From: an archaeon
Lineage (GTDB): Archaea > Nanobdellota > Nanobdellia > Pacearchaeales > GW2011-AR1
NCBI GenBank assembly: GCA_018657525.1
Contig: JABHWZ010000009.1
Coordinates: 2,855 to 66,854 of the forward strand
DNA: 64,000 bases
Direction of reading: 5' to 3'
Below, one piece after another: positions 6,698 through 61,874 of the stretch. Below the pieces are notes generated by a model, which saw only the letters and a list, made by a program, of their open reading frames with translations, was not told the origin of the DNA and ran no database searches. Position numbers and translations under genes: made by a program. How positions within the stretch are numbered: the stretch's first letter is position 1; every line of letters begins with the position of its first letter.

Positions 6698-6750
6698 GAT
6701 TTGATTTGGAGAAGGTAATTGAGAGTGGGAAATTTGTAATAAGGGATTCA

Positions 6751-6840
6751 GTCGCTTCGCTCTCTACTCCGTAGAACATCAATTTCTGTAGAAATTGACA
6801 TAAACCCCCTACAACTTCTGTAGAAGTAAAAGTTGCTTGG
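6751..6840. repeat. family D-long mini-element (three short palindromes)
   Basis: gtcgcttcgctctctactccgtagaacatcaatttctgtagaaattgacataaacc... matches 25271-25360; its left end abuts a 9-nt copy of the tRNA-Thr T-loop (agggattca, 6742-6750). Confidence 0.8.
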
Positions 6841-6876
6841 CCAATAGGCATACCCCAAATTGCGGAATATTGGGGC
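6839..6876. repeat. family F element, copy 1, in inverted orientation to 7276-7311
   Basis: ggccaataggcataccccaaattgcggaatattggggc is about 85 percent identical to the reverse complement of 7276-7311. Confidence 0.8.
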
Positions 6877-6936
6877 AAATTTACGTGACTTAGAATCCTG
6901 AAGAATTAATATATATTATCTTGCTTCGATAATTGA

Positions 6937-6976
6937 CACTGCTCAGTGTACCTCTTTTTGCGGAGTGCTTGGGCAA
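6937..6976. repeat. family E 40-nt mini-element, copy 1
   Basis: cactgctcagtgtacctctttttgcggagtgcttgggcaa; related copies at 35599-35638 and 58082-58118. Confidence 0.8.
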
Positions 6977-6993
6977 AGCCTGCAGAGGGATTC
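6977..6993 (-). pseudogene. partial copy of the tRNA-Thr 3' end (positions 57-73)
   Basis: agcctgcagagggattc versus agcctgcggagggattc at 7150-7166 (16/17). Confidence 0.8.
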
Positions 6994-7149
6994 CTTTATC
7001 TCCTAATCACGATTTGCACTTTTAAAAATACCTTCGGTAATTTATTAAATCGTAATTACTCGACCCCCAATTGAAAGTTGCTTTGAGTTTACGTGACTTG
7101 GAATCCTGCCAGGATTAATAATATTTAACAAAGTTAAATATTATAGATA

Positions 7150-7221: not shown

Positions 7222-7275
7222 ATATATAATTATTTTAGAAACAGGTATTTAAAGATTTATTCTTTGGTGTCTTAC

Positions 7276-8637: not shown

Positions 8638-8760
8638 GGGTTTCTTTTTTCAAAAAAAGAAAAGCTACAGTGTAAAAGAAAACTAAAATTGAAATCTTGA
8701 ATAAGATTTGTGAGTTAGAATCGTTTTCTCTTGCAATCCGAAGAACGATTCCTGTAGGGG
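8638..8760. repeat. family C structured intergenic element, copy 1
   Basis: Shares the hairpin series with 45339-45558 and 61571-61874; the central hairpin loop is inverted (gaat versus attc) and the last stem differs by compensatory changes. Confidence 0.8.
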
Positions 8761-17707: not shown

Positions 17708-17971
17708 ATGGATTATAAAACAGAAGAATGGTCTGACTATGAGGCAGATTGGTGGGGATTTGAAAAAGAATCATCTTTGTCAGTTGGAAAACAATCCTCT
17801 CAAGAACCTTTTGCTAACCCAAAAGATTCTGCTGACAAATATTTGGTTATTTTAGAAACAGCACTAGGTATTTCTCTAGAGAATAGACAAATTATACAAA
17901 TGATAATGGACAATCCCAAGATGAGTTTTGATATGAAAAATGTTAAGATTCATAGAAGGATTTTTGGGTAA
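17708..17971 (+). CDS. hypothetical protein
   Basis: aggagg RBS, ATG start, followed by a hairpin terminator. Confidence 0.45.
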   Translation: MDYKTEEWSDYEADWWGFEKESSLSVGKQSSQEPFANPKDSADKYLVILETALGISLENRQIIQMIMDNPKMSFDMKNVKIHRRIFG

Positions 17972-17991
17972 GGTTTATAATTTTAAATTAT

Positions 17992-18019
17992 GGGGCGAAA
18001 GCCCCTTTTTCTTTTTTTT
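17992..18019 (+). terminator. hairpin GGGGC-GAAA-GCCCC followed by a T-run
   Basis: Read directly at 17992-18005, with a T-rich tract to 18019. Confidence 0.6.
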
Positions 18020-18067
18020 AAAAGTTTTTTAAGCTGAGTTATACTACTTTTTTCATGCGGGTATGCC
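18020..18067 (+). repeat. copy 1 of the tRNA-Leu promoter plus tRNA positions 1-11
   Basis: aaaagttttttaagctgagttatactacttttttcatgcgggtatgcc is identical at 18020, 18244 and 18395. Confidence 0.9.
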
Positions 18068-18243
18068 TCCGAGCTTGCAATCTCAATTTGTAATATTTAG
18101 ATACTTTTTTGGTTGTTCTATTTTAGAATTCAAAATCCTCCTTCCATCCCCCTCCCTCCCGCCCGGAGGAAAAGTAATTATTGAATTCTAAAATTATTAA
18201 TTGGTTTAAATAAAGTCAAACTTGTTCTCCCACCCCTCAATTC

Positions 18244-18291
18244 AAAAGTTTTTTAAGCTGAGTTATACTACTTTTTTCATGCGGGTATGCC
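18244..18291 (+). repeat. copy 2 of the tRNA-Leu promoter plus tRNA positions 1-11
   Basis: Same 48-mer as 18020-18067 and 18395-18442. Confidence 0.9.
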
Positions 18292-18365
18292 TCCGAGCTC
18301 CCAACCCTGATTTTTTCCCATTACCCCTTTTTTATTTGAATAAACCCAAAATCAAAGTTGCTCGG
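18292..18365 (+). repeat. family B module, tRNA-Leu locus
   Basis: tccgagctcccaaccctgattttttcccattaccccttttttatttgaataaacccaaaatcaaagttgctcgg is about 88 percent identical to 22626-22697. Confidence 0.85.
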
Positions 18366-18394
18366 GTCAAACTTGTTCTCCCACCCCTCAATTC

Positions 18395-18431
18395 AAAAGT
18401 TTTTTAAGCTGAGTTATACTACTTTTTTCAT
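18395..18431 (+). promoter_or_regulatory. tRNA-Leu promoter (BRE/TATA-like aaaagttttttaagc about 27-37 nt upstream of the tRNA 5' end)
   Basis: A/T box at the canonical archaeal distance; a similar aaaagtt box lies upstream of tRNA-Cys. Confidence 0.5.
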
Positions 18432-18514
18432 GCGGGTATGCCGGAGTGGTCAAACGGGTCAGGTTTAGGACCTGATAGCTTATGCTTACTTAGGTTCGAA
18501 TCCTAATACCCGCA
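18432..18514 (+). tRNA. tRNA-Leu (anticodon TAG), long variable arm
   Basis: GCGGGTA acceptor, anticodon loop TTTAGGA, 15-nt variable arm, T-arm TTAGG-TTCGAAT-CCTAA. Confidence 0.9.
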
Positions 18515-18595
18515 TTTATTGAGATTCGAAGCCTCGGGTTTCGTTGAAGAATTGTGAAGCAATTGCTTTGGCGAGCGAGGATTTACATCCGACGC
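18515..18595 (+). repeat. family A module, tRNA-Leu locus (variant central segment)
   Basis: gattcgaagcctcgggtttcgtt...gagcgaggatttacatccgacgc shared with 21403-21604 (reverse strand) and 22832-22904. Confidence 0.85.
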
Positions 18596-18613
18596 CGAAT
18601 CCTAATATCCGCA
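18596..18613 (+). pseudogene. copy of tRNA-Leu positions 56-73
   Basis: cgaatcctaatatccgca versus cgaatcctaatacccgca at 18497-18514 (17/18); both are followed by tttatt. Confidence 0.9.
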
Positions 18614-18625
18614 TTTATTTTTTAT

Positions 18626-19573
18626 TTAATTATTTGTAGAATTATTTAGCTTTTTTTCTTTGGCTTCTTTTTCTTTTTGTTTGATTTTGTCTTCAAGTTC
18701 TAATCTTTCAATTAATTCCTTGTATCTATTTCTAATTGTTACTTCAGTTATTCCTGCTACATCTGCAACTTCTCTTTGAGTTTTCTTTTCATCATTTATT
18801 AAAGCAGCGACGTAAAGCGCAGCGGCAGCTATTCCGGCCGGGCCTCTTCCTGAAGTTAATTCAACTCTTTCAGCGTCTCTTAAAATTTTTAATGCTTCGT
18901 TTTGAGTTTTTGGTGAGAGCTTTAGTACTGAAGAGAATCTGGAAACATAATCCTTTGGAGATGATTGTTTTACTTTTATTCCAAGTTTTCTTATTACAAA
19001 TCTGTATGTTCTTCCGATTTCTTTTCTTTCTACATCTGAGGCAGTTGCCATTTCGTCGAGGGTTCTTGGAATATTATAGGAACGACAGGCGGCGTATAAG
19101 CAAGCAGCAATTACAGATTCCATACTTCTTCCTCTTACTAGTCCTCTTTGAAGAACATAGTTATAGATTCTTGATGCTTCGTCTCGGATTACATTTGGTA
19201 AATTTAGGTATGATGCTATAACTCTTAATTCGGCCATGGCTAATCTTAAGTTTCTTTCAATCGAAGTTGAAACTCTTTCTTGCCATTTTTTTAATCTTAA
19301 GAATTTTCTTGTTTGTCCTGGATCAAGTTTATAGATGTCAGAAATCTCCCCAATATTTGTCGTTAATCCCTTGTCAAATTTTTGCATAGAGATTGGCGCT
19401 CCTCCACGACCTTTTTTACCTGATTTATCAAATTGGCCTTGGGGGTCTATTCCAGTATCAACCATTTTATCTTCAACAACTAGCCCACAATCATTACAAA
19501 TGACTTCTCCTAAATGAGGATCATAATTTAAATGAATACTCCCACATTCAGGACATTTTTTTATATTTGGCAT
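18626..19573 (-). CDS. tfb: transcription initiation factor IIB (TFB)
   Basis: N-terminal zinc ribbon CPECGS...CNDCG followed by two cyclin-like repeats. Confidence 0.9.
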   Translation of the reverse strand: MPNIKKCPECGSIHLNYDPHLGEVICNDCGLVVEDKMVDTGIDPQGQFDKSGKKGRGGAPISMQKFDKGLTTNIGEISDIYKLDPGQTRKFLRLKKWQERVSTSIERNLRLAMAELRVIASYLNLPNVIRDEASRIYNYVLQRGLVRGRSMESVIAACLYAACRSYNIPRTLDEMATASDVERKEIGRTYRFVIRKLGIKVKQSSPKDYVSRFSSVLKLSPKTQNEALKILRDAERVELTSGRGPAGIAAAALYVAALINDEKKTQREVADVAGITEVTIRNRYKELIERLELEDKIKQKEKEAKEKKLNNSTNN

Positions 19574-19674
19574 TTTAGAAATTACTTTTGTTACTCTAGA
19601 GGTTTATAGTAAGATTTATAAAGCTTTTCTATTTATAAACTTTTCTATTTAAAAATTTATTTCAAAATGAGAAT

Positions 19675-20034
19675 TTATTCAATTAGAATTCCGTTAATAA
19701 CACCTTCTTGACTTGGCCTATTTGTGATTTTTGCTTTTCCAAGTGTGGTTTCTACAATTGTGCCTTTTGTTAAAATATTTTGTCTTGCTAGAAAACGATT
19801 TGAAGGAGTCTCGAGAACATTTTTAATTTCTGTCTTTTGAATTTTTTTATCTTTTAAAATATTTATTTTATTGTTCTTTAATGAGTATGTTTTTTTATTT
19901 CCGCCCATTGTTCTCAAGGTTCTTCTTTTTTCTTCTCCTAGTTTTACAATTCTTTTTTGCCCTGCTGTCTCGAAGGATTTTTTCTTTCTATTCTTGATAT
20001 ATTTTCCGCCAGTGATTTTTTTTCCTTTGTTCAT
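19675..20034 (-). CDS. rps8e: 30S ribosomal protein S8e
   Basis: KITGGKY...RKKKSFE.G...T.LGEEKRRTLRTMGGNKK...; start at ATG 20034 is preferred, the track start 20079 is possible. Confidence 0.8.
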   Translation of the reverse strand: MNKGKKITGGKYIKNRKKKSFETAGQKRIVKLGEEKRRTLRTMGGNKKTYSLKNNKINILKDKKIQKTEIKNVLETPSNRFLARQNILTKGTIVETTLGKAKITNRPSQEGVINGILIE

Positions 20035-20137
20035 GATATAATGGGCTATTTTTGATTTAAAAATGTTTTGACGCGTCATTTTGTGTAATAGTTGTTGCTA
20101 AATAGTAATGCGATAGGTTTAAAAGTCAATTCAGCCG

Positions 20138-20392
20138 TTGATAATTATGGTTAACGGAATCGAACGTCCTTTGGATTTGTTGAATAATTCAAAGAGCCAA
20201 GAAGTTATGGTGCAGTTGAAAAGCGGAAATAAGTTTGTTGGAACTCTTCTAGCTTTTGATATACACATTAATTTGGTTCTAGAGAATACAAAGGAAATGG
20301 ATGGAAGTGACATAAAACGAAACCTTGGTTTGACCTTTTTAAGGGGAGATACAATTATATTTATTTCTCCAGCGTCGACATCTTTGAAATAA
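20138..20392 (+). CDS. Sm-like (LSm) archaeal protein
   Basis: RPLDLLNNSKSQEVMVQLKSGNKFVGTLLAFDIHINLVLENT...LFLRGDTIIFISP (Sm1 and Sm2 motifs); the start could be 20147. Confidence 0.8.
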   Translation: MIIMVNGIERPLDLLNNSKSQEVMVQLKSGNKFVGTLLAFDIHINLVLENTKEMDGSDIKRNLGLTFLRGDTIIFISPASTSLK

Positions 20393-20475
20393 GTAAGCGT
20401 TTTTGTTTTAGTTTCGCAAGTTGTAAAATTTTGAATAGTGGTAACTCTTAAAAACTTAGGTTTATTCTGATAGTT

Positions 20476-21381
20476 ATGGCTACTAAAATTAAAATTACTT
20501 TTTTGGGAACTGCGGATGCAATTCCTAGCGTGAGAAGAAATCATTCAGCTGTATTTTTGAGTTATGATGCAGAGAATATTCTTTTTGATTGTGGGGAGGG
20601 GACACAGAGACAGTTTAGAAAGGCTAGATTAAACCCTGGGAAAGTAACACGTATTTTAATTACTCATTTACATGGGGATCATGTTTTGGGTTTACCTGGT
20701 TTAATGCAAACTTTGAGTTTGTCCAATTATAATAAAACACTTTATATTTATGGGCCAAAAGGTACAAAACAATTTGTTAGAGAAATGTTAAATACTTTTA
20801 AATTTCAAGAAAATTATCCAATTAAAGTGGAAGAAGTTTCTGGGAACTTTTTTGAAAACAAGCATTTTTATTTGGAAGCGGAAAAGATGATTCATGGAAT
20901 TCCTTGTAATGCATATAATTTTGTAAAAAAAGGAAAACTTAGAATTGATAAAAAAAAGTTGAAAAAATCTGGTTTGCCCGAAGGACCTTTGCTGTCTAAG
21001 ATTATTCAGGGGAAAGATGTTGTTTATCAAGGGAAGAAATTTAAATCAAAAGCTTTGACTTATCAAGATAAGGATTTGAAAGTGAGTTTTGTGATGGATA
21101 CTTTAGATAATAAAAGAATTGTGCCTTTTGTTAAAGGGGCAGATGTTTTTGTTTCAGAATCTACATTTAGCTTGGAGGAAAAAGATAAAGCCGAAAAGCA
21201 TAAACATTTGACGTCGGAACAAGCAGCTAAAATTGCAAAAAAAGCAAAAGTAGGGAAATTAATATTAACTCACATTAGTGCTCGTTATGATAAAAATCCT
21301 AAGAAAATTTTACTAGAAGCAAAAAAGATTTTTAGAAAGTCTGAAGTAGTTAAGGATTTAGATGTTTTGGAAGTGGAATAA
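20476..21381 (+). CDS. rnz: ribonuclease Z
   Basis: ITFLGT...FDCGEGTQRQ...ITHLHGDHVLGLPGL, metallo-beta-lactamase tRNA 3' endonuclease pattern. Confidence 0.85.
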   Translation: MATKIKITFLGTADAIPSVRRNHSAVFLSYDAENILFDCGEGTQRQFRKARLNPGKVTRILITHLHGDHVLGLPGLMQTLSLSNYNKTLYIYGPKGTKQFVREMLNTFKFQENYPIKVEEVSGNFFENKHFYLEAEKMIHGIPCNAYNFVKKGKLRIDKKKLKKSGLPEGPLLSKIIQGKDVVYQGKKFKSKALTYQDKDLKVSFVMDTLDNKRIVPFVKGADVFVSESTFSLEEKDKAEKHKHLTSEQAAKIAKKAKVGKLILTHISARYDKNPKKILLEAKKIFRKSEVVKDLDVLEVE

Positions 21382-21384
21382 ATA

Positions 21385-21495
21385 TGGCCCGGACAGGATT
21401 CGGCGTCGGATGTAAATCCTCGTTCGTCCGCTATTGAATTTCTGAAGCGAACGAAACCCAAGGCTTCGAATTCAAAAATAATTTCTTAAAAATTA
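21385..21495 (-). repeat. tandem unit 1: tRNA-Arg positions 56-73, family A module, and a copy of the tRNA trailer
   Basis: tggcccggacaggattcg (18/18 with 21605-21622) followed by gcgtcggatgtaaatcctcg...; starts 3 nt after the rnz stop. Confidence 0.9.
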
Positions 21496-21604
21496 TGGCC
21501 CGGACAGGATTCGGCGTCGGATGTAAATCCTCGCTCGTCCGCTATTGAAATTCTGAAGCGAACGAAACCCAAGGCTTCGAATCCAAATAATTTCTTAAAA
21601 ATTA
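21496..21604 (-). repeat. tandem unit 2: tRNA-Arg positions 56-73, family A module, and a copy of the tRNA trailer
   Basis: About 95 percent identical to unit 1; periods of 111 and 109 nt. Confidence 0.9.
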
Positions 21605-21679
21605 TGGCCCGGACAGGATTCGAACCTGCGACTTTCAGCTTAGAAGGCTGACACTCTATCCAGGCTGAGTTACCGAGCC
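21605..21679 (-). tRNA. tRNA-Arg (anticodon TCT)
   Basis: Reverse complement GGCTCGG acceptor, anticodon loop CTTCTAA, T-arm GCAGG-TTCGAAT-CCTGT. Confidence 0.9.
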
Positions 21680-21733
21680 ATAATAATATTTAAGATAAAA
21701 ACATATTTAAAAGTGTTTGTTTTTAAAGTTAAA

Positions 21734-22576
21734 ATGAAAAAGAGTGTGAAAACACTGAGTTTTCCGGTTAGAGGAAAATACGTTGTAATGCTAGCACCAA
21801 GTTTTGTGGTGGATTTTTCTTACCCTGAAATTATTTTAAAATTAAGACGTCTTGGTTTTGATAAAGTTGTCGAATTAACTTTTGGAGCAAAATTAGTTAA
21901 TAGAGAATATCATAAATTGCTAAAAAAATGTCCCTCAGGATGTTTGATGATTTCTTCTGTTTGTCCTGGAGTGGTGAGTTTAATTAATAATAAATTTTCA
22001 AAGTTAAAAAAGAATTTAATTTTGATAGATAGTCCAATGGTGGCTATGGCGAAAGTGTGCAAGAAAATTTATCCTAAACATAATGTTGTTTTTATTTCTC
22101 CTTGTGAATTTAAAAAACAAGAGGCTGAGGGTTGTAAGGAAATTGATTTTGTGATTAATTTTAATGAATTAAAAGAAATTTTTGCAAAGAAACTTTTTAA
22201 GAGAGAAGATAAAAATTTGTCTACAAGTTTTGATAGGTTTTATAATGATTATACAAAAATATATCCTCTTGCTGGGGGGTTGAGTAAGACAGCTCATTTG
22301 AAAAATATTTTAACAAATAAAGAAAGTATTTCAATAGATGGAATTAAGAGAGTGGAAACTTTTTTAAAAAAAGGAAATTTTGGGAAGTTGAAATTTTTGG
22401 ATGTGAATTTTTGTGTAGGGGGTTGTGTTGGAGGGCCTTACATTAATTCAAGTGTGCCTTTGGTTGTTAAAAAATTAAAAGTAAGAGGTTATTTGAGAAA
22501 ATCTAAACAAGAAGATATACCTGAAATTAAAAAAGGTTTAGTAAAAAAAGCAAAAGGAATTAGTTTGAAGAAGTAA
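21734..22576 (+). CDS. [FeFe]-hydrogenase large-subunit C-terminal-domain-like protein
   Basis: SSVCPGVV, SPMVAMAK, ISPCEFKKQEA and CVGGCVGGP echo the H-cluster-domain motifs TSCCPGW, SPQQM, MPCTAKK and CPGGC. Function unknown. Confidence 0.55.
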   Translation: MKKSVKTLSFPVRGKYVVMLAPSFVVDFSYPEIILKLRRLGFDKVVELTFGAKLVNREYHKLLKKCPSGCLMISSVCPGVVSLINNKFSKLKKNLILIDSPMVAMAKVCKKIYPKHNVVFISPCEFKKQEAEGCKEIDFVINFNELKEIFAKKLFKREDKNLSTSFDRFYNDYTKIYPLAGGLSKTAHLKNILTNKESISIDGIKRVETFLKKGNFGKLKFLDVNFCVGGCVGGPYINSSVPLVVKKLKVRGYLRKSKQEDIPEIKKGLVKKAKGISLKK

Positions 22577-22615
22577 AGAAATAGTTTTAAATAGTGTTTT
22601 CTTAAGTAATTATGT

Positions 22616-22697
22616 GCGCGGATGGTCTGGCTCCCAACTTTGATTTTTTCTCATTACCCCTTTTTTATTTAAATAAACCTAAAATCAAATTTGCTCG
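22616..22697 (+). repeat. copy of tRNA-Cys positions 1-10 (22616-22625) followed by a family B module (22626-22697)
   Basis: gcgcggatgg equals 22759-22768; tctggctcccaactttgattttttctcattaccccttttttatttaaataaacctaaaatcaaatttgctcg matches 18292-18365. Confidence 0.85.
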
Positions 22698-22758
22698 ACG
22701 GCTACATTGTAGCCTTGTACCATCAACTTTAAAAGTTCTGAATTTCTATTTATTTCAT

Positions 22759-22831
22759 GCGCGGATGGCACAGCGGCTACTGCGTCTCCCTGCAGAGGAG
22801 ATTTTCACGGGTTCGAGTCCCGTTCCGCGCT
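22759..22831 (+). tRNA. tRNA-Cys (anticodon GCA)
   Basis: GCGCGGA acceptor, anticodon loop CTGCAGA, T-arm ACGGG-TTCGAGT-CCCGT. Confidence 0.85.
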
Positions 22832-22904
22832 TTAGACGAGAATCCTTGGGTTTCGTTCGCTTCAAAAATTCAATAGCGGACGAGCGAGGATTTACATCCG
22901 ATGC
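22832..22904 (+). repeat. family A module, tRNA-Cys locus
   Basis: ccttgggtttcgttcgcttcaaaaattcaatagcggacgagcgaggatttacatccgatgc is nearly identical to the tRNA-Arg(TCT) units. Confidence 0.9.
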
Positions 22905-22922
22905 CGAGTCCCGTTCCGCGCT
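22905..22922 (+). pseudogene. copy of tRNA-Cys positions 56-73
   Basis: cgagtcccgttccgcgct is identical (18/18) to 22814-22831. Confidence 0.9.
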
Positions 22923-22962
22923 TTTCCCTAAAATTTAAAAACGTGTAGTGTATAATATTTTT

Positions 22963-24747
22963 ATGTATATTGTTAAACAACCTGTGAAGGGGAAGGATTA
23001 TTTTTATCTTCGGAAAAGCGTTAGAGAAAATGGAAAAGTTGTTAGTAAGTCTGTTGCGTATCTTGGAAAAACAAAAACTGATGCAGAGAAAAGATTTAAA
23101 GAGCTAAAAAATCATGGAAAATTGGAGGATTTTGAAAATAAAATTTTAGGGAAAAATGATATGAAAAAATTGGAAACTGAAAAGAATATGGATCAAGAAA
23201 AAATGAAAAAAACTGAAAGTGAATCTATAAAAAATAAAGAAATTAAAGTTTCTACAGATGAGAAAGAATTTTTGAGTTTTCTCAATGAGTCTGGTTTGGT
23301 TTGGGGTCCGAGTCCTGAGATTTATGGTGGGCTTGCAGGATTTTATACTTATGGTCCGTTGGGAAAGTTGTTAAAAAATAAAGTGGAAGATTCAATAAGA
23401 AAAATTTTTAATTCAAATGGTTTAAGGGAATTAGAGTCTCCAACTATTTTGCCAGATTCAGTATGGAAAGCTTCAGGGCATTTAGAAACTTTTAAAGATA
23501 GAACAATAAATTGTTCAAAGTGTAAGGCAGTTTTTAGAGCAGATAAATTAATTGAAGAAAAATATGATGTTCCGGCAGATTCTTTTTCAAATGAGAAGAT
23601 TCTAAATTTTATTGACGAGAAAGGAATTAAATGTCCGAGTTGTAAGGGATTGATGGAAAAATCAATTGATACTCAAAGTTTGATGATGAAGACAAAAGTG
23701 GCTGGGAAGGATGCTTCTTTAAGGCCTGAGACTGCTACAGGAACTTATTTACCATTCACTAGATTTTATAATTATTTTAGGAAAAAACTTCCGTTGGGGG
23801 TTTTTCAAATTGGTAAAGCATATAGAAATGAAATTTCTCCTCGGCAACATGTTTTAAGGGGGAGGGAGTTTACGCAAGCTGAAGGACAAATGTTTGTTGA
23901 TCCTGAAACAAAAAATAATTGGGAGAAATATGAATTAATAAAAGGGGAAAAGTTGCCGTTTTGGAATTCTGAAAGTCAAGAGTCAGATAAATCTGTGGTA
24001 AAGATTACCGTGGCAGAGGCTTTGAAAAAAGGAGATATAAAAAGTCAAGCATATGGTTGGTGTATTTGGTTAGCTTATACTCAGTTTATTAATTTAGGTA
24101 TTCCTTCAGATAGAATTCGTCTGCGACAACATCATCCGGATGAAAAAGCATTTTATGCCGACGACGCTTGGGATATAGAAGTTAAATTAAATAATTATGG
24201 TTGGTTTGAAATGTGCGGAGTTCATGACAGAACAGATTATGATTTAACTCAGCATTCCAAATTTTCGGGGGTTAAATTGGAAGCGGCAAGAGAGAATGGG
24301 GAGAAGTTTGTACCGCATGTTTTAGAAATTGCCTTTGGTACTGATCGTCCGACTTATGCGTTGATTGATATTTTTTACGATAAGAAGGAAGAAGGAGAAG
24401 GGAAGTCAATGTTTAAAATTCCTTATTGGATTGCTCCAATTGATTGTGCTATTTTTCCTTTGGTTAAGAAACCTGAATTATTTAAAATTGCAGAAGACAT
24501 TAAGGAAAGTTTAGAAAGAGAATTTGTCGTCGAGTATGACCTTGCAGGGAGTATTGGTAAAAGGTATTTAAGAAGTGCAGTGGCAGGTATCCCTTATGCA
24601 ATTACTGTTGATTTTGATTCTATTGAAAATGGTGATGTAACTTTGAGAGATCGTGATACTGAAAAGCAAGTTCGTGTTAAGATTTCTGAATTGAAAAATA
24701 TTTTGAGAAAATTAATAAATCAAGAACTCAGCTTCGACAAATTATAA
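22963..24747 (+). CDS. glyS: glycyl-tRNA synthetase (archaeal/eukaryotic type) with ~115-aa N-terminal extension
   Basis: SPEIYGGLAGFYTYGPLG, class II motifs, RPETATG, FRNEISPR. ATG 22963 lies about 27 nt after the aaatttaaaa box, suggesting a leaderless mRNA. Confidence 0.85.
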   Translation: MYIVKQPVKGKDYFYLRKSVRENGKVVSKSVAYLGKTKTDAEKRFKELKNHGKLEDFENKILGKNDMKKLETEKNMDQEKMKKTESESIKNKEIKVSTDEKEFLSFLNESGLVWGPSPEIYGGLAGFYTYGPLGKLLKNKVEDSIRKIFNSNGLRELESPTILPDSVWKASGHLETFKDRTINCSKCKAVFRADKLIEEKYDVPADSFSNEKILNFIDEKGIKCPSCKGLMEKSIDTQSLMMKTKVAGKDASLRPETATGTYLPFTRFYNYFRKKLPLGVFQIGKAYRNEISPRQHVLRGREFTQAEGQMFVDPETKNNWEKYELIKGEKLPFWNSESQESDKSVVKITVAEALKKGDIKSQAYGWCIWLAYTQFINLGIPSDRIRLRQHHPDEKAFYADDAWDIEVKLNNYGWFEMCGVHDRTDYDLTQHSKFSGVKLEAARENGEKFVPHVLEIAFGTDRPTYALIDIFYDKKEEGEGKSMFKIPYWIAPIDCAIFPLVKKPELFKIAEDIKESLEREFVVEYDLAGSIGKRYLRSAVAGIPYAITVDFDSIENGDVTLRDRDTEKQVRVKISELKNILRKLINQELSFDKL

Positions 24748-25194: not shown

Positions 25195-25212
25195 TGGCTC
25201 TGGTGAGAGTTT
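25195..25212 (-). pseudogene. copy of tRNA-Met positions 56-73
   Basis: tggctctggtgagagttt is identical (18/18) to 25413-25430. Confidence 0.9.
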
Positions 25213-25412
25213 GTCGCTTCGCTCTCTACTCCGTAGAATGAGAGTTTCTATTTAAATTTGGAAATCTCATGATCACTTCGTTCTCTACTTCGTAGAACAT
25301 CAATTTCTGTAGAAATTGACATAAACCACCGACGTTCTGTGGAACAAAAAGTTATCTGAATTTTGGGAGCCTAAATTCTCAAAAATTTAAATGGCATTGA
25401 AAATGCCATAAA
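25213..25412. repeat. 200-nt mosaic insert: D-short (25213-25238), atgaga...tctcat hairpin module (25239-25270), D-long (25271-25360), hairpin atggcattgaaaatgccat
   Basis: Matches 6751-6840 (family D) and the atgaga...ttggaaaatctcat module at 46483-46576. Confidence 0.8.
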
Positions 25413-25485: not shown

Positions 25486-25544
25486 AAACTTAAAAGAATA
25501 ATTTCATTTAAAAGGTTTTTTAAAGTTTAATTCTATCCAGGAAT

Positions 25545-35586: not shown

Positions 35587-35598
35587 TTTTGTTTTTAA

Positions 35599-35638
35599 CA
35601 CTGCTTAGTGTGCCCTTCTTTGTGGTTTGCTTGGGCAA
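35599..35638. repeat. family E 40-nt mini-element, copy 3, flanked by TTTTAA direct repeats
   Basis: cactgcttagtgtgcccttctttgtggtttgcttgggcaa; ttttaa at 35593-35598 and 35639-35644. Confidence 0.8.
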
Positions 35639-45338: not shown

Positions 45339-45558
45339 GGGGTTCTTTTTTCAAAAAAAGTAGCGAACGAGTCGCTTCGAGTTCTCCTCCTTCGTCGGAA
45401 AAAAGAACCTACAGTGGTAGAAAATGGGTTTTTCTTTTAGAAAAAGAATAACCACAGTGTAAAAGAAGACTAAAATTGAAATCTTATTCAAGATTTGTGA
45501 GTTAGAATTTTCTTCTTTTTGCCTCCTACAGAAAATTCCCATGAGGGTTTTTCTTTTC
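45339..45558. repeat. family C structured element, copy 2, with duplicated head hairpin and a 39-nt GC-rich nested insertion (45360-45398)
   Basis: ggggttcttttttcaaaaaaa[gtagcgaacgagtcgcttcgagttctcctccttcgtcgg]aaaaaagaacctacagtggtag...aaatcttattcaagattt...gaattttc...gaaaattc. Confidence 0.8.
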
Positions 45559-46449: not shown

Positions 46450-46451
46450 TT

Positions 46452-46600
46452 GAGGATCTGAACCTCGTCCTCACTTTGTTGCGGATGAGACTCTTCCGCT
46501 GAATTGGAAAATCTCATAGTCACTTTGTTCTCAACAAGTTGGATGAGACTCTTCCGCTGAATTGGAAAATCTCATAGAGGATCGAAGCTTTGTAGGCTCA
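46452..46600 (+). repeat. downstream mosaic: degenerate T-arm/3'-end copy (46452-46473), 36-nt perfect tandem repeat (46483-46518, 46541-46576), second 3'-end copy (46577-46600, 20/24)
   Basis: gaggatctgaacctcgtcctca and gaggatcgaagctttgtaggctca versus the real gaggttcgaatcctcgtaggctca; ggatgagactcttccgctgaattggaaaatctcata occurs twice. Confidence 0.8.
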
Positions 46601-57942: not shown

Positions 57943-58239
57943 ATGAGTGAATTTTTATGGCATAAGGTTTCTGAAAAAGAGAAAGAAGAAATTTCTAAAA
58001 AAGCAAAGTTAATAATGGATAATTTTTCTAAAAAGTTAGATTTTGTAAAAGAGAGTATGTCTGAGAATTTTATTGAGGGGGCACTGCTCAGTGTACCTTT
58101 AGTTGCGGAATGCCATGGTAAAATTTTTGAGAGGGAGGAAGGTAATTGTGAAGGGTTGGATATAAATAGAAAAGTTATGTTTGAGAATGCTCCTCAAAAA
58201 AATGATTCTTTTATAATTGCGGAGAAAAAGAAATGGTAG
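57943..58239 (+). CDS. gatC: GatC-like amidotransferase subunit C carrying an 18-aa in-frame insertion
   Basis: C-terminus REEG....R..MFENAPQKNDSFII resembles GatC (REDE...NAP...G.F.VP); gatA lies two genes downstream. Confidence 0.5.
   Translation: MSEFLWHKVSEKEKEEISKKAKLIMDNFSKKLDFVKESMSENFIEGALLSVPLVAECHGKIFEREEGNCEGLDINRKVMFENAPQKNDSFIIAEKKKW
58082..58118. repeat. family E mini-element, copy 2, inside the gatC-like CDS
   Basis: cactgctcagtgtacctttagttgcggaatgccatgg; the first 17 nt are identical to 6937-6953. Confidence 0.8.
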
Positions 58240-61570: not shown

Positions 61571-61685
61571 GGGGTTCTTTTTTCAAAAAAAGAACCTACA
61601 GTGGTAGAAAAAAATATGTTGACAAATCTTATTCAAGATTTGTGAGTGAGAATTTTCTTCTTTTTGCCTCCTAAGGAAAATTCCC
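61571..61685. repeat. family C structured element, copy 3
   Basis: ggggttcttttttcaaaaaaagaacctacagtggtag...aaatcttattcaagattt...gaattttc...gaaaattccc. Confidence 0.85.
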
Positions 61686-61874
61686 GGCCCTCCCCCTCTT
61701 TTTTCAAAAAGAAAATCTACAGGGGTAGAAAAAAATATGTTGACAAATCTTATTCAAGATTTGTGAGTGAGAATTTTCTTCTCTGCTCAAGCTCACACTC
61801 GCTTTTTGTGACGTTCGCTTTGCTCACAAATTTTTGCGAGGGTAAACTTTCGGCCTCCCATGGAAAATTCCCCC
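61686..61874. repeat. family C structured element, copy 4, tandem to copy 3, with a 71-nt nested insertion (61783-61853)
   Basis: Same hairpin series; the last stem is interrupted by ctgctcaagctcacactcgc...gggtaaactttcgg. Confidence 0.8.

Follow-up and report, generated by a model that had tools for sequence, protein, structure and literature searches.

The tRNA-Cys Locus

The window analyzed here, a stretch of 64,000 nucleotides (nt) from an archaeal contig assigned to the Pacearchaeales (JABHWZ010000009.1, positions 2,855 to 66,854 of the forward strand), carries a tRNA-Cys gene that is enclosed on both sides by short non-coding inserts and, beyond these, by partial copies of its own ends. 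The gene itself, tRNA-Cys(GCA), is intact and uninterrupted, occupies 73 nt on the plus strand (22759-22831), and is recognized both by ARAGORN and by Rfam (RF00005, 57.7 bits against a gathering score of 29). The remaining features of the locus (22585-22922) also lie on the plus strand. Alignment of upstream regions places a TATA-like box, TTTTAAATA, at 22585-22593, 31 nt upstream of an outer 5' fragment (22616-22625) that copies tRNA-Cys positions 1-10 with 10/10 identity. Family B, an imperfect palindrome of about 75 nt (22626-22701, the end being approximate), adjoins tRNA position 10 at its left end and is followed by a segment (22702-22758) with a small hairpin, GGCTACATTGTAGCC, and an inner promoter, whose TATA-like sequence (22727-22735) and AAAAGTT box (22731-22737) stand at the usual distance from the start of the intact gene. 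Directly after the gene comes a 73-nt copy of family A (22832-22904), with a right end, ...GGATTTACATCCGATGC, that adjoins position 56 of an outer 3' fragment (22905-22922), a copy of positions 56-73 with 18/18 identity. An earlier reading of the sequence by a model (the original prediction) had given this same layout of 5' fragment, B, AAAAGTT box, tRNA, A, and 3' fragment, and the layout holds to the base. The 10-mer GCGCGGATGG matches the window twice, at 22616-22625 and at tRNA-Cys positions 1-10, where shuffled sequences lead one to expect 0.01 matches, and the 18-mer CGAGTCCCGTTCCGCGCT also matches twice, at tRNA-Cys positions 56-73 and at 22905-22922, where shuffles lead one to expect none. 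The family A copy has a G+C content of 45%, as against 32% for the window.

Both 5' copies of tRNA-Cys, the outer and the inner, have a TATA-like box at the usual distance. A box of the TTTTAAATA type stands at a similar distance before the tRNA-Arg, tRNA-Thr, and tRNA-Met genes of this genome, while the inner promoter, TTTAAAAGTTCTGAATT, closely resembles that of the bare tRNA-Cys gene in a related contig, L123 (TTTAAAAGTTCTAAATT); because of this resemblance, the inner gene and its promoter look resident rather than imported. Similarity among the tRNA promoters of this genome extends well past the TATA box, with the pattern TTTTAAATA..TGTTT.CTTAA.TAATTAT.T before +1 (22585-22615 on the plus strand; 7222-7255, 21680-21712, and 25486-25520 on the minus strand). 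A second promoter type, with the AAAAGTT box, is seen at tRNA-Leu and at the inner tRNA-Cys.

The structure is not an assembly artefact, since it was assembled independently from many samples (38 blocks are listed) and four other contigs (L118, L119, L120, and L125) are identical to the window at tRNA-Cys. Gene callers place spurious open reading frames (ORFs) over the regions of B, tRNA, and A, one of 108 amino acids (aa) at 22612-22938 and one of 61 aa at 18222-18407. The former is already present in public protein collections (P0121), and when it was used as a query for further A or B loci only the ORF itself was returned.

Recurrence at Other tRNA Genes of the Window

All six tRNA genes in the window are followed by short inserts and then by a 3' fragment of the local tRNA, usually beginning at T-loop position 56. 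Besides the copy at tRNA-Cys there are three copies of family A, one after tRNA-Leu and two after tRNA-Arg(TCT), each of which is succeeded by local positions 56-73. Family B has one further copy, 86% identical to that at tRNA-Cys, which follows a copy of tRNA-Leu positions 1-11. The inserts lack coding capacity, and their orientation relative to their own tRNA is constant on either strand.

The tRNA-Leu locus lies entirely on the plus strand and is the more elaborate of the two that carry B. Its outermost 5' fragment (positions 1-11; 18057-18067) is preceded by a promoter copy and followed by a 147-nt insert (18068-18214), after which a second copy of positions 1-11 (18281-18291) forms part of a 77-nt duplicated block (18215-18291 is identical to 18366-18442). 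The B copy (18292-18365) has the termini CCGAGC...GCTCGG. The intact tRNA-Leu(TAG) gene (18432-18514) is followed by an A copy (18519-18595) in which the central hairpin differs in sequence and is still a hairpin, and then by a fragment of positions 56-73 (18596-18613) with 17/18 identity. The arrangement of B upstream and A downstream that had been described for this gene is thus present, together with the additional 5' fragment and its 147-nt insert.

The tRNA-Arg(TCT) gene (21605-21679, minus strand) is followed by two tandem units (21604-21385, minus strand), each made up of a 20-nt spacer, a family A copy (21584-21514 and 21475-21403), and a fragment of positions 56-73 (21513-21496 and 21402-21385, 18/18 each). 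Downstream of tRNA-Thr(TGT) (6741-7149, minus strand) are two nested inserts: the first, of 155 nt, ends at a fragment of positions 57-73 (6993-6977, 16/17), the second ends in a further repeat, family C, and a decayed fragment (6750-6741) lies outermost. The region downstream of tRNA-Met(CAT) (25195-25412, minus strand) consists of family C, a T-arm-like hairpin, a second family C end, and a fragment of positions 56-73 (25212-25195, 18/18), and that downstream of tRNA-Arg(TCG) (46450-46600, plus strand) of an inverted motif resembling a T-arm, at +3, a 37-nt hairpin present twice, and a decayed 3' fragment (46583-46600).

Empty Sites and One-Sided Insertions in Relatives

The relatives compared are Pacearchaeota contigs whose glycyl-tRNA synthetase (GlyRS) is 70-79% identical to that of the window. 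These keep the gene order TFIIB, S8e, LSM, RNase Z, tRNA-Arg, tRNA-Cys, GlyRS. Relatives lacking the inserts, a comparison proposed with the original prediction, do occur: at tRNA-Cys and tRNA-Arg(TCT), no A, B, or fragment is found in L123, L126, or L134. L135 is grouped with these, and nested fragments are recorded at its tRNA-Cys gene. The emptiness of the tRNA-Cys and tRNA-Arg(TCT) sites in relatives marks A and B as derived insertions. The two genes are neighbors in L126 and L134, 2 nt apart, and look like one transcription unit.

Comparable structures recur in the relatives with other inserts. Of 19 tRNA genes in these contigs, about 7 are accompanied by 5' or 3' fragments that enclose unrelated inserts of 38-87 nt, and each fragment matches the tRNA of its own genome. 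On the 5' side, positions 1-15 are duplicated at L123 Leu (insert 39 nt), positions 1-14 at L133 Leu (42 nt), and positions 1-11 at L133 Arg (84 nt). On the 3' side, L123 Leu has a duplication of positions about 67-73 (38 nt), L123 Met of positions about 46-73 (53 nt), L135 Met of positions 50-73 (87 nt), and L135 Leu of positions 56-73 (18/18; 49 nt), the last with the junction ...GAGCCG before C56. Several of these cases are one-sided, with a 5' fragment only (L133 Arg and L133 Leu) or a 3' fragment only (L135 Leu, L123 Met, and L135 Met). At L133 Arg the ancestral promoter stands before the outer fragment, and the inner gene is without one.

The distribution of A and B bears on whether the tRNA-Cys locus is one unit or two insertions. 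Within the window, both families occur at tRNA-Leu and tRNA-Cys and A alone at tRNA-Arg(TCT); their co-occurrence at two of the three A loci has a chance probability of about 0.2 with six tRNAs. Of the readings offered originally, that of two independent systems acting at the D-arm and the T-loop fits best, given A without B at tRNA-Arg(TCT) and the one-sided relatives. A single cassette replacing positions 11-55 of a resident gene is not supported, for the two families are also found apart, in some relatives only the 5' or only the 3' side is affected, and the inner promoter looks resident.

A functional arrangement, in which a single cassette of B, promoter, tRNA, and A has taken the place of a resident gene's interior or the outer fragments act as a long-range processing helix of the sort that flanks archaeal rRNAs, is nevertheless suggested by some features of the locus. 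In the minimum-energy fold of 22616-22922 the outer fragments pair and close the structure, as had been proposed; the order of B upstream and A downstream is shared with tRNA-Leu; and a canonical promoter at the right distance before the outer 5' fragment makes a long transcript plausible. In addition, the tRNA-Leu 5' fragments of L123, L133, and the window each match their own, differing tRNA, for which either selection or independent insertions could account. The pairing, however, is automatic, since the outer fragments are copies of the two acceptor-stem strands. No bulge-helix-bulge motif was seen when the locus and the A and B units were folded at minimum energy, although no dedicated motif search was made, and the A copies have weak predicted folds that vary from copy to copy (z from -0.75 to -2.3). 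Most affected tRNAs have no bracket that could form a helix: tRNA-Arg(TCT) has A only, tRNA-Thr, tRNA-Met, and tRNA-Arg(TCG) have 3' inserts only, and the relatives present one-sided cases or bare genes. The resemblance of the inner promoter to that of a bare relative also speaks against a cassette. A functional role of this kind is very improbable, the processing helix included, and the outer tRNA-Cys pieces are read as duplication scars of the A and B insertions, not as parts of a working structure.

Junctions and Duplicated Segments

The junctions inside the tRNA genes are fixed. All four copies of family A end with ...GGATTTACATCCGAYGC directly before C56, both complete copies of family C end with ...GCGAC directly before position 56, and the unrelated insert at L135 Leu has the same 55/56 junction. 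The outer ends of the duplications are likewise sharp: 3' copies share just 1-2 nt (a T run) past position 73, except at tRNA-Leu (6 nt) and in the tRNA-Arg tandem unit, and 5' copies share 0-4 nt upstream of +1, except at tRNA-Leu of the window, where the promoter is duplicated too. The fragments beside A, B, and C agree with the local tRNA in 10/10, 11/11, 18/18 (four times), and 17/18 positions. Short sequences have been inserted repeatedly, in one orientation and at fixed positions, with the distal segment of the gene duplicated and the gene kept whole.

The two ends of family A differ in character. The right end is precise and the left end ragged, with lengths differing by about 0, 4, and 17 nt: the tRNA-Arg copies have an additional 20 nt, the tRNA-Leu copy keeps part of these, and the tRNA-Cys copy is the shortest. 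Family B has the terminal inverted repeats CCGAGC...GCTCGG and a 13-bp (base pair) inner stem. An inverted T-arm-like motif opens several inserts; its score is suggestive at tRNA-Arg(TCT), tRNA-Leu, and L135 Leu, and exceeds every shuffle only at tRNA-Arg(TCG) (14/16), so that the motif at insert left ends is only a hint.

One precise and one ragged end resembles the 5' truncation that might be expected if the inserts were RNA-mediated, with a reverse transcriptase jumping end to end between two RNAs, a small one (A, B, or C) and a piece of tRNA (56-73 or 1-10), and the chimeric complementary DNA integrating at the matching gene. Most duplications end exactly at the limits of the mature tRNA, +1 and 73, and the inner junctions fall in the T-loop, the D-arm, or the variable region, which are typical sites of tRNA cleavage. 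In DPANN archaea, diversity-generating retroelements with reverse transcriptases are reported to be common. Such a route is hard to reconcile with the 5' duplications at tRNA-Leu of the window, which include a promoter, outside the tRNA; no reverse transcriptase was found in the sequence of this genome that was examined (about 90 kb), the junctions show no CCA or A-tail signature, and A, B, and C as expressed RNAs have no independent support and no Rfam match. An RNA-mediated origin is accordingly judged improbable.

Proposed Insertion with Target-Derived Duplication

The structures are here attributed, tentatively, to independent and orientation-specific insertions of miniature non-autonomous elements, each with a duplication derived from its target and made by an integrase acting in trans; the probability of this reading is put at somewhat under one half (about 0.45). 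The tRNA-Cys gene would at first have been bare and would then have received two separate, orientation-specific insertions of short non-coding mobile sequences, family A entering the T-loop between positions 55 and 56 and family B the D-arm after position 10. Each insertion would have been accompanied by duplication of the part of the gene beyond it, positions 56-73 for A and 1-10 for B, leaving one complete gene and a second copy that stays as an inert outer fragment, and the same process would have operated at every tRNA gene in the window. The duplicated segment would be made from the target through staggered breaks, one of which falls precisely within a hairpin-forming arm of the tRNA gene, and subsequent fill-in repair, with the enzyme supplied in trans. 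Later unequal recombination between repeats would produce tandem units such as the two at tRNA-Arg. That the duplication is generated from the target we infer from the occurrence of one element family at several tRNAs (A at Arg, Leu, and Cys; C at Thr and Met; B at Leu and Cys), each time with a fragment of the local tRNA; the elements do not keep to one tRNA and do not seem to bring their own copy of a target segment. As these fragments match the local tRNA fully or almost fully, production of the duplication from the target is simpler than many changes of an attachment site carried by the element.

Several observations weigh against insertion by a dedicated system. The duplications are not of constant length, being 18-20 nt for 3' events at 55/56 and about 7-8, 25, and 29 nt in some relatives; 5' duplications measure 10-15 nt, but 48-77 nt with the promoter at tRNA-Leu of the window. 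Alignment of the A copies reveals no terminal inverted repeats. Some inserts carry pieces of the T-arm of another tRNA, where clean cut-and-paste transposition predicts none: the L135 Met insert ends GTGGC|CGAATC, and the hairpin at tRNA-Arg(TCG) has a Met-type T-arm. All A and B copies lie within 5 kb, so copying between neighboring tRNA loci could have taken place. The contigs of this species are all identical at tRNA-Cys, and no site was found filled in some of them and empty in others. Finally, no integrase or other recombinase, transposase, Cas1, or reverse transcriptase appeared among Pfam hits or scans of the roughly 90 kb from this genome, in the inserts or near them, and the loci of the relatives yielded no mobility enzyme either.

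Much of this would be expected if no dedicated mobile element existed and the inserts arose during repair with template switching, at breaks or stalled forks in highly transcribed, hairpin-forming tRNA genes. The gene end would be duplicated and filler copied from nearby loci, and microhomology in the T-loop (TTCGAATCC) would spread the filler between neighboring tRNA genes. Besides the lack of a mobility enzyme and the clustering of A and B, the wide variation in duplication length and in insert size (17 to about 230 nt) favors such a process, as do the inverted T-arm-like motif with which inserts often open, the T-loop-like sequence that flanks family A on both sides, and the presence in the inserts of pieces of other tRNAs and, in one, of a 44-nt stretch found twice elsewhere in the window. 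Repair of this kind does not readily explain a right junction at exactly 55/56 for three unrelated insert families in two genomes, or the conserved element boundaries and orientation, which look enzyme-defined; nor does any stepwise path of template switching give the order of intact gene, insert, and fragment from position 56 without extra assumptions. It is held to be unlikely, if deserving of serious weight.

The inserts share sequence with other parts of the window. The 44-nt stretch, at 6933-6976 in the second tRNA-Thr insert, recurs at 35595-35638 and 58078-58121, in one case just upstream of a gene start and in the other inside a coding region; inserts may for this reason capture pieces from elsewhere in the genome. 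The two hairpins after tRNA-Arg(TCG) (46483-46519 and 46541-46577) resemble the tRNA-Met T-arm (ATGAGA...AAAATCTCAT) with 17 nt inserted at 55/56, and a variant lies downstream of tRNA-Met at 25236-25272 on the minus strand.

Target-derived insertion could be given a more specific form, in which a trans-acting system of the Pacearchaeota, not described until now, inserts short DNA at D-arm and T-loop landmarks and builds from the target a duplication bounded by the mature tRNA ends. The enzyme might be a Cas1-like or other ruler-type integrase that does without terminal repeats, or insertion might be guided or templated by tRNA fragments (1-10, 56-73), a variant that could be a prokaryotic counterpart of retroposition of the short interspersed element type. 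In either form this proposal is unlikely.

Comparison with Known Mobile Elements

Partial tRNA duplications are well known at the borders of integrated elements (PMC9897764, PMC3218864). In integrative elements at archaeal and bacterial tRNA genes, with the attachment duplications of a tyrosine integrase (PYG1 of Pyrococcus yayanosii is an example), the repeat runs from the gene interior to the gene end, and tandem accumulation at one tRNA occurs (PMC9897764). The locus described here resembles these in having direct repeats of part of a tRNA (10/10 and 18/18) around an insert, with the complete tRNA-Cys kept. Integrase-type elements, however, measure 9-23 kb or more, encode an integrase, and are specific to one tRNA, whereas the present inserts are 38-230 nt long and non-coding, with one family at several tRNAs.

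The inserts could even so be remnants or miniature derivatives of classical integrative elements, mobilized by a tyrosine integrase through an attP borne by the element, with the fragments as attR or attL scars and A and B as conserved arms beside attP that survived deletion of the cargo and are possibly still mobilizable in trans. Partial tRNA duplications in archaea and bacteria alike are classically traced to such elements, and in Caldiarchaeum a 5' fragment stands beside an element that encodes a recombinase (PMC3293823). Like most attachment repeats, the duplications run from gene interior to gene end, tRNA-Arg has tandem units, and the carried-over T-arm pieces of former targets resemble the products of imprecise excision. 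The T-arm near-palindrome would furnish a natural core site and could also account for the inverted tRNA-Arg. Set against these points, units of only about 90-110 bp are very small for an excised double-stranded circle, and the same A body at three tRNAs with matching local ends would require repeated changes of attachment site. Random deletion would not give identical A boundaries at three loci, no integrase was present in any sequence examined, and the collections of viruses (IMG/VR), phages, and plasmids held no related sequence. A descent from integrative elements is therefore unlikely, though it remains a serious contender.

The closest worked-out model for target-derived insertion is the Cas1-type integrase of casposons. 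The casposase of Aciduliprofundum boonei needs an 18-bp segment of tRNA-Pro's T-psi-C loop and makes a 15-bp duplication that overlaps the tRNA 3' end; in vitro it also gives duplications of 4, 16, and 22 bp and inserts short DNA duplexes (PMC5137440). Casposons and the present inserts would have in common the T-psi-C hairpin of a tRNA gene as landmark, one precise cut, and a target-generated duplication overlapping the tRNA 3' end. The casposon duplication, however, covers 15 bp from 5 bp before the tRNA end, as against 18-20 nt here from T-loop position 56. Casposons also have terminal inverted repeats, which family A lacks, and Cas1 and PolB, neither of which appeared among the Pfam hits in the same 90 kb; they have no 5' (D-arm) counterpart.

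Insertions that restore the 5' end of an archaeal tRNA gene were thought at the outset to be undescribed, and this was not quite right. In Caldiarchaeum subterraneum a 5' tRNA-Thr fragment lies 1.8 kb upstream of the gene, with an element encoding a recombinase between the two (Sugahara et al., 2012; PMC3293823). The likeness consists in an archaeal tRNA 5' fragment upstream of a functional gene with inserted mobile DNA between them; the Caldiarchaeum case is tied to intron gain, whereas here the inserts are of 40-150 nt, non-coding, and associated with a gene without an intron.

Three further groups share some of these properties. Miniature inverted-repeat transposable elements, or MITEs, are likewise short, non-coding, repeated, and presumably mobilized in trans, and family B, an imperfect palindrome with matching termini, is similar to them in structure. 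MITEs make short duplications of fixed length, a few bp. The duplications here vary (5' copies of 10-77 nt, 3' copies of about 7-29 nt), MITEs are not tied to one structural position of tRNA genes, and A lacks terminal inverted repeats. Transposed archaeal tRNA introns similarly place related short sequences at non-canonical positions, including the T-loop, in different tRNA genes of one genome, and a splicing endonuclease gene is present in the window; introns, however, interrupt the gene and need a bulge-helix-bulge for their removal, whereas the gene here is uninterrupted. In split and permuted tRNA genes the fragments are the sole source of the tRNA, while here an intact gene stands between them. 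Hairpin elements of the IS200/IS605 type were considered and rejected, as they leave the duplication unexplained. What is new in the window is the miniature size of the inserts and their lack of any gene, the insert families common to different tRNAs, the use of both sides of the gene, and the density (six of six tRNA genes).

Searches for Related Sequences

With Rfam 15, only tRNAs reach threshold, and permissive matches over 17900-23000 fall far below gathering scores. C/D-box small RNA, RNase P RNA, signal recognition particle RNA, and integron attC were each rejected, by eye for motifs and by Rfam, as identities for A, B, or an RNA-like region of another contig, L073 (the same contig as L117). 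A scan of genome collections with the 16-nt core of A, which is too short for the purpose, gave 116 matches, nearly all by chance. The match that is likely real lies in L073, from a Nanoarchaeota metagenome-assembled genome, and has 21 nt in common with A; its chance probability is roughly 0.1 before allowing for taxonomy, and it leaves A unexplained. The region concerned (L073 5136-5462, minus strand, about 327 nt) follows a TATA-like box, has a 7-bp terminal stem (GCCCGAG/CUCGGGC) and a very stable predicted fold (z = -6.0), and has no Rfam match. The shared 21 nt, CGAGCGAGGATTTACATCCGA, stand at its 5' end, and a nearby 12-mer matches a segment upstream of tRNA-Leu in the window. In Joint Genome Institute metagenomes the A core occurs nowhere else save in one Nanoarchaeota contig. 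In IMG/VR the A core and the other repeat cores are absent, two matches to the B core there being due to chance, and the whole locus has no match among phage or plasmid records.

Neighboring Genes and Rearrangements

The genes near the locus are archaeal and encode TFIIB, ribosomal protein S8e, an Sm-like protein, RNase Z, GlyRS, and tRNA splicing endonuclease; the named GlyRS homologs belong to Pacearchaeota or Nanoarchaeota. The gene downstream of tRNA-Cys (start MYIVKQPVKGKDYFYLRKS...) has a transposase-like look that was rejected on inspection, and it is that of GlyRS with an N-terminal extension. The extension, of about 100 residues (MYIVKQPVKGKDYFYLRKSVRENGKVVSKSVAYLGK..., window 22963-23300), is kept in relatives such as L126, and about a third of the GlyRS homologs listed have only about 83% query coverage and may be without it.

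The tRNA-Arg(TCT) gene is inverted in the window relative to L123 (6499-6575), L126 (284-358), L134, and L135. In the relatives it lies on one strand with tRNA-Cys, whereas in the window a hydrogenase-like gene (Fe_hyd_lg_C) lies between the two. Contig L120 is 99.97% identical to the window and diverges exactly at the tRNA-Arg 3' end (L120 1-1746 against window 21590); beyond this it has a 58%-identical hydrogenase-like paralog, a gene for a 304-aa membrane protein, and a changed acceptor end (CCGGGGCA). This contig is either a real variant or integrated island at the tRNA or, more likely, an assembly chimera with a related species through the conserved tRNA, the neighboring hydrogenase-like gene being only 58% identical and the acceptor end a mismatch. 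In L125 (1971-6799), a low-coverage contig of a 98%-identical strain, a truncated GlyRS gene adjoins the tRNA-Thr region, from which it is separated by about 15 kb in the window, and this junction is either a rearrangement or a chimera. Away from the tRNA genes the window has an intergenic repeat family of about 86-127 nt with the core ...AAATCTTATTCAAGATTTGTGAGT.AGAAT... (8644-8729, 45431-45516, 61576-61661, and 61697-61782).

Implications

For annotation, the fragments and the spurious ORFs that run across them should be masked. Assemblies, too, are interrupted here, contig L119 beginning within the tRNA-Leu repeat and L118 having a scaffold gap at that place. More generally, partial tRNA duplications are usually read as the borders of kilobase-sized proviruses or genomic islands, and here they are found around gene-free inserts of 40-230 nt, on both sides of the gene, at all tRNA genes in 64 kb of a very small genome, and time and again in related lineages. 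If a trans-acting enzyme does make the duplication from the target, tRNA genes hit by mobile DNA would have a new means of staying intact. Were either variant of the specific proposal to hold, an integrase of the ruler type or guidance by tRNA fragments, the flanks of tRNA genes would be fast-turnover arrays of captured sequence. If true, target-derived insertion would also open a concrete approach to the mobile elements of DPANN archaea, of which little is known.

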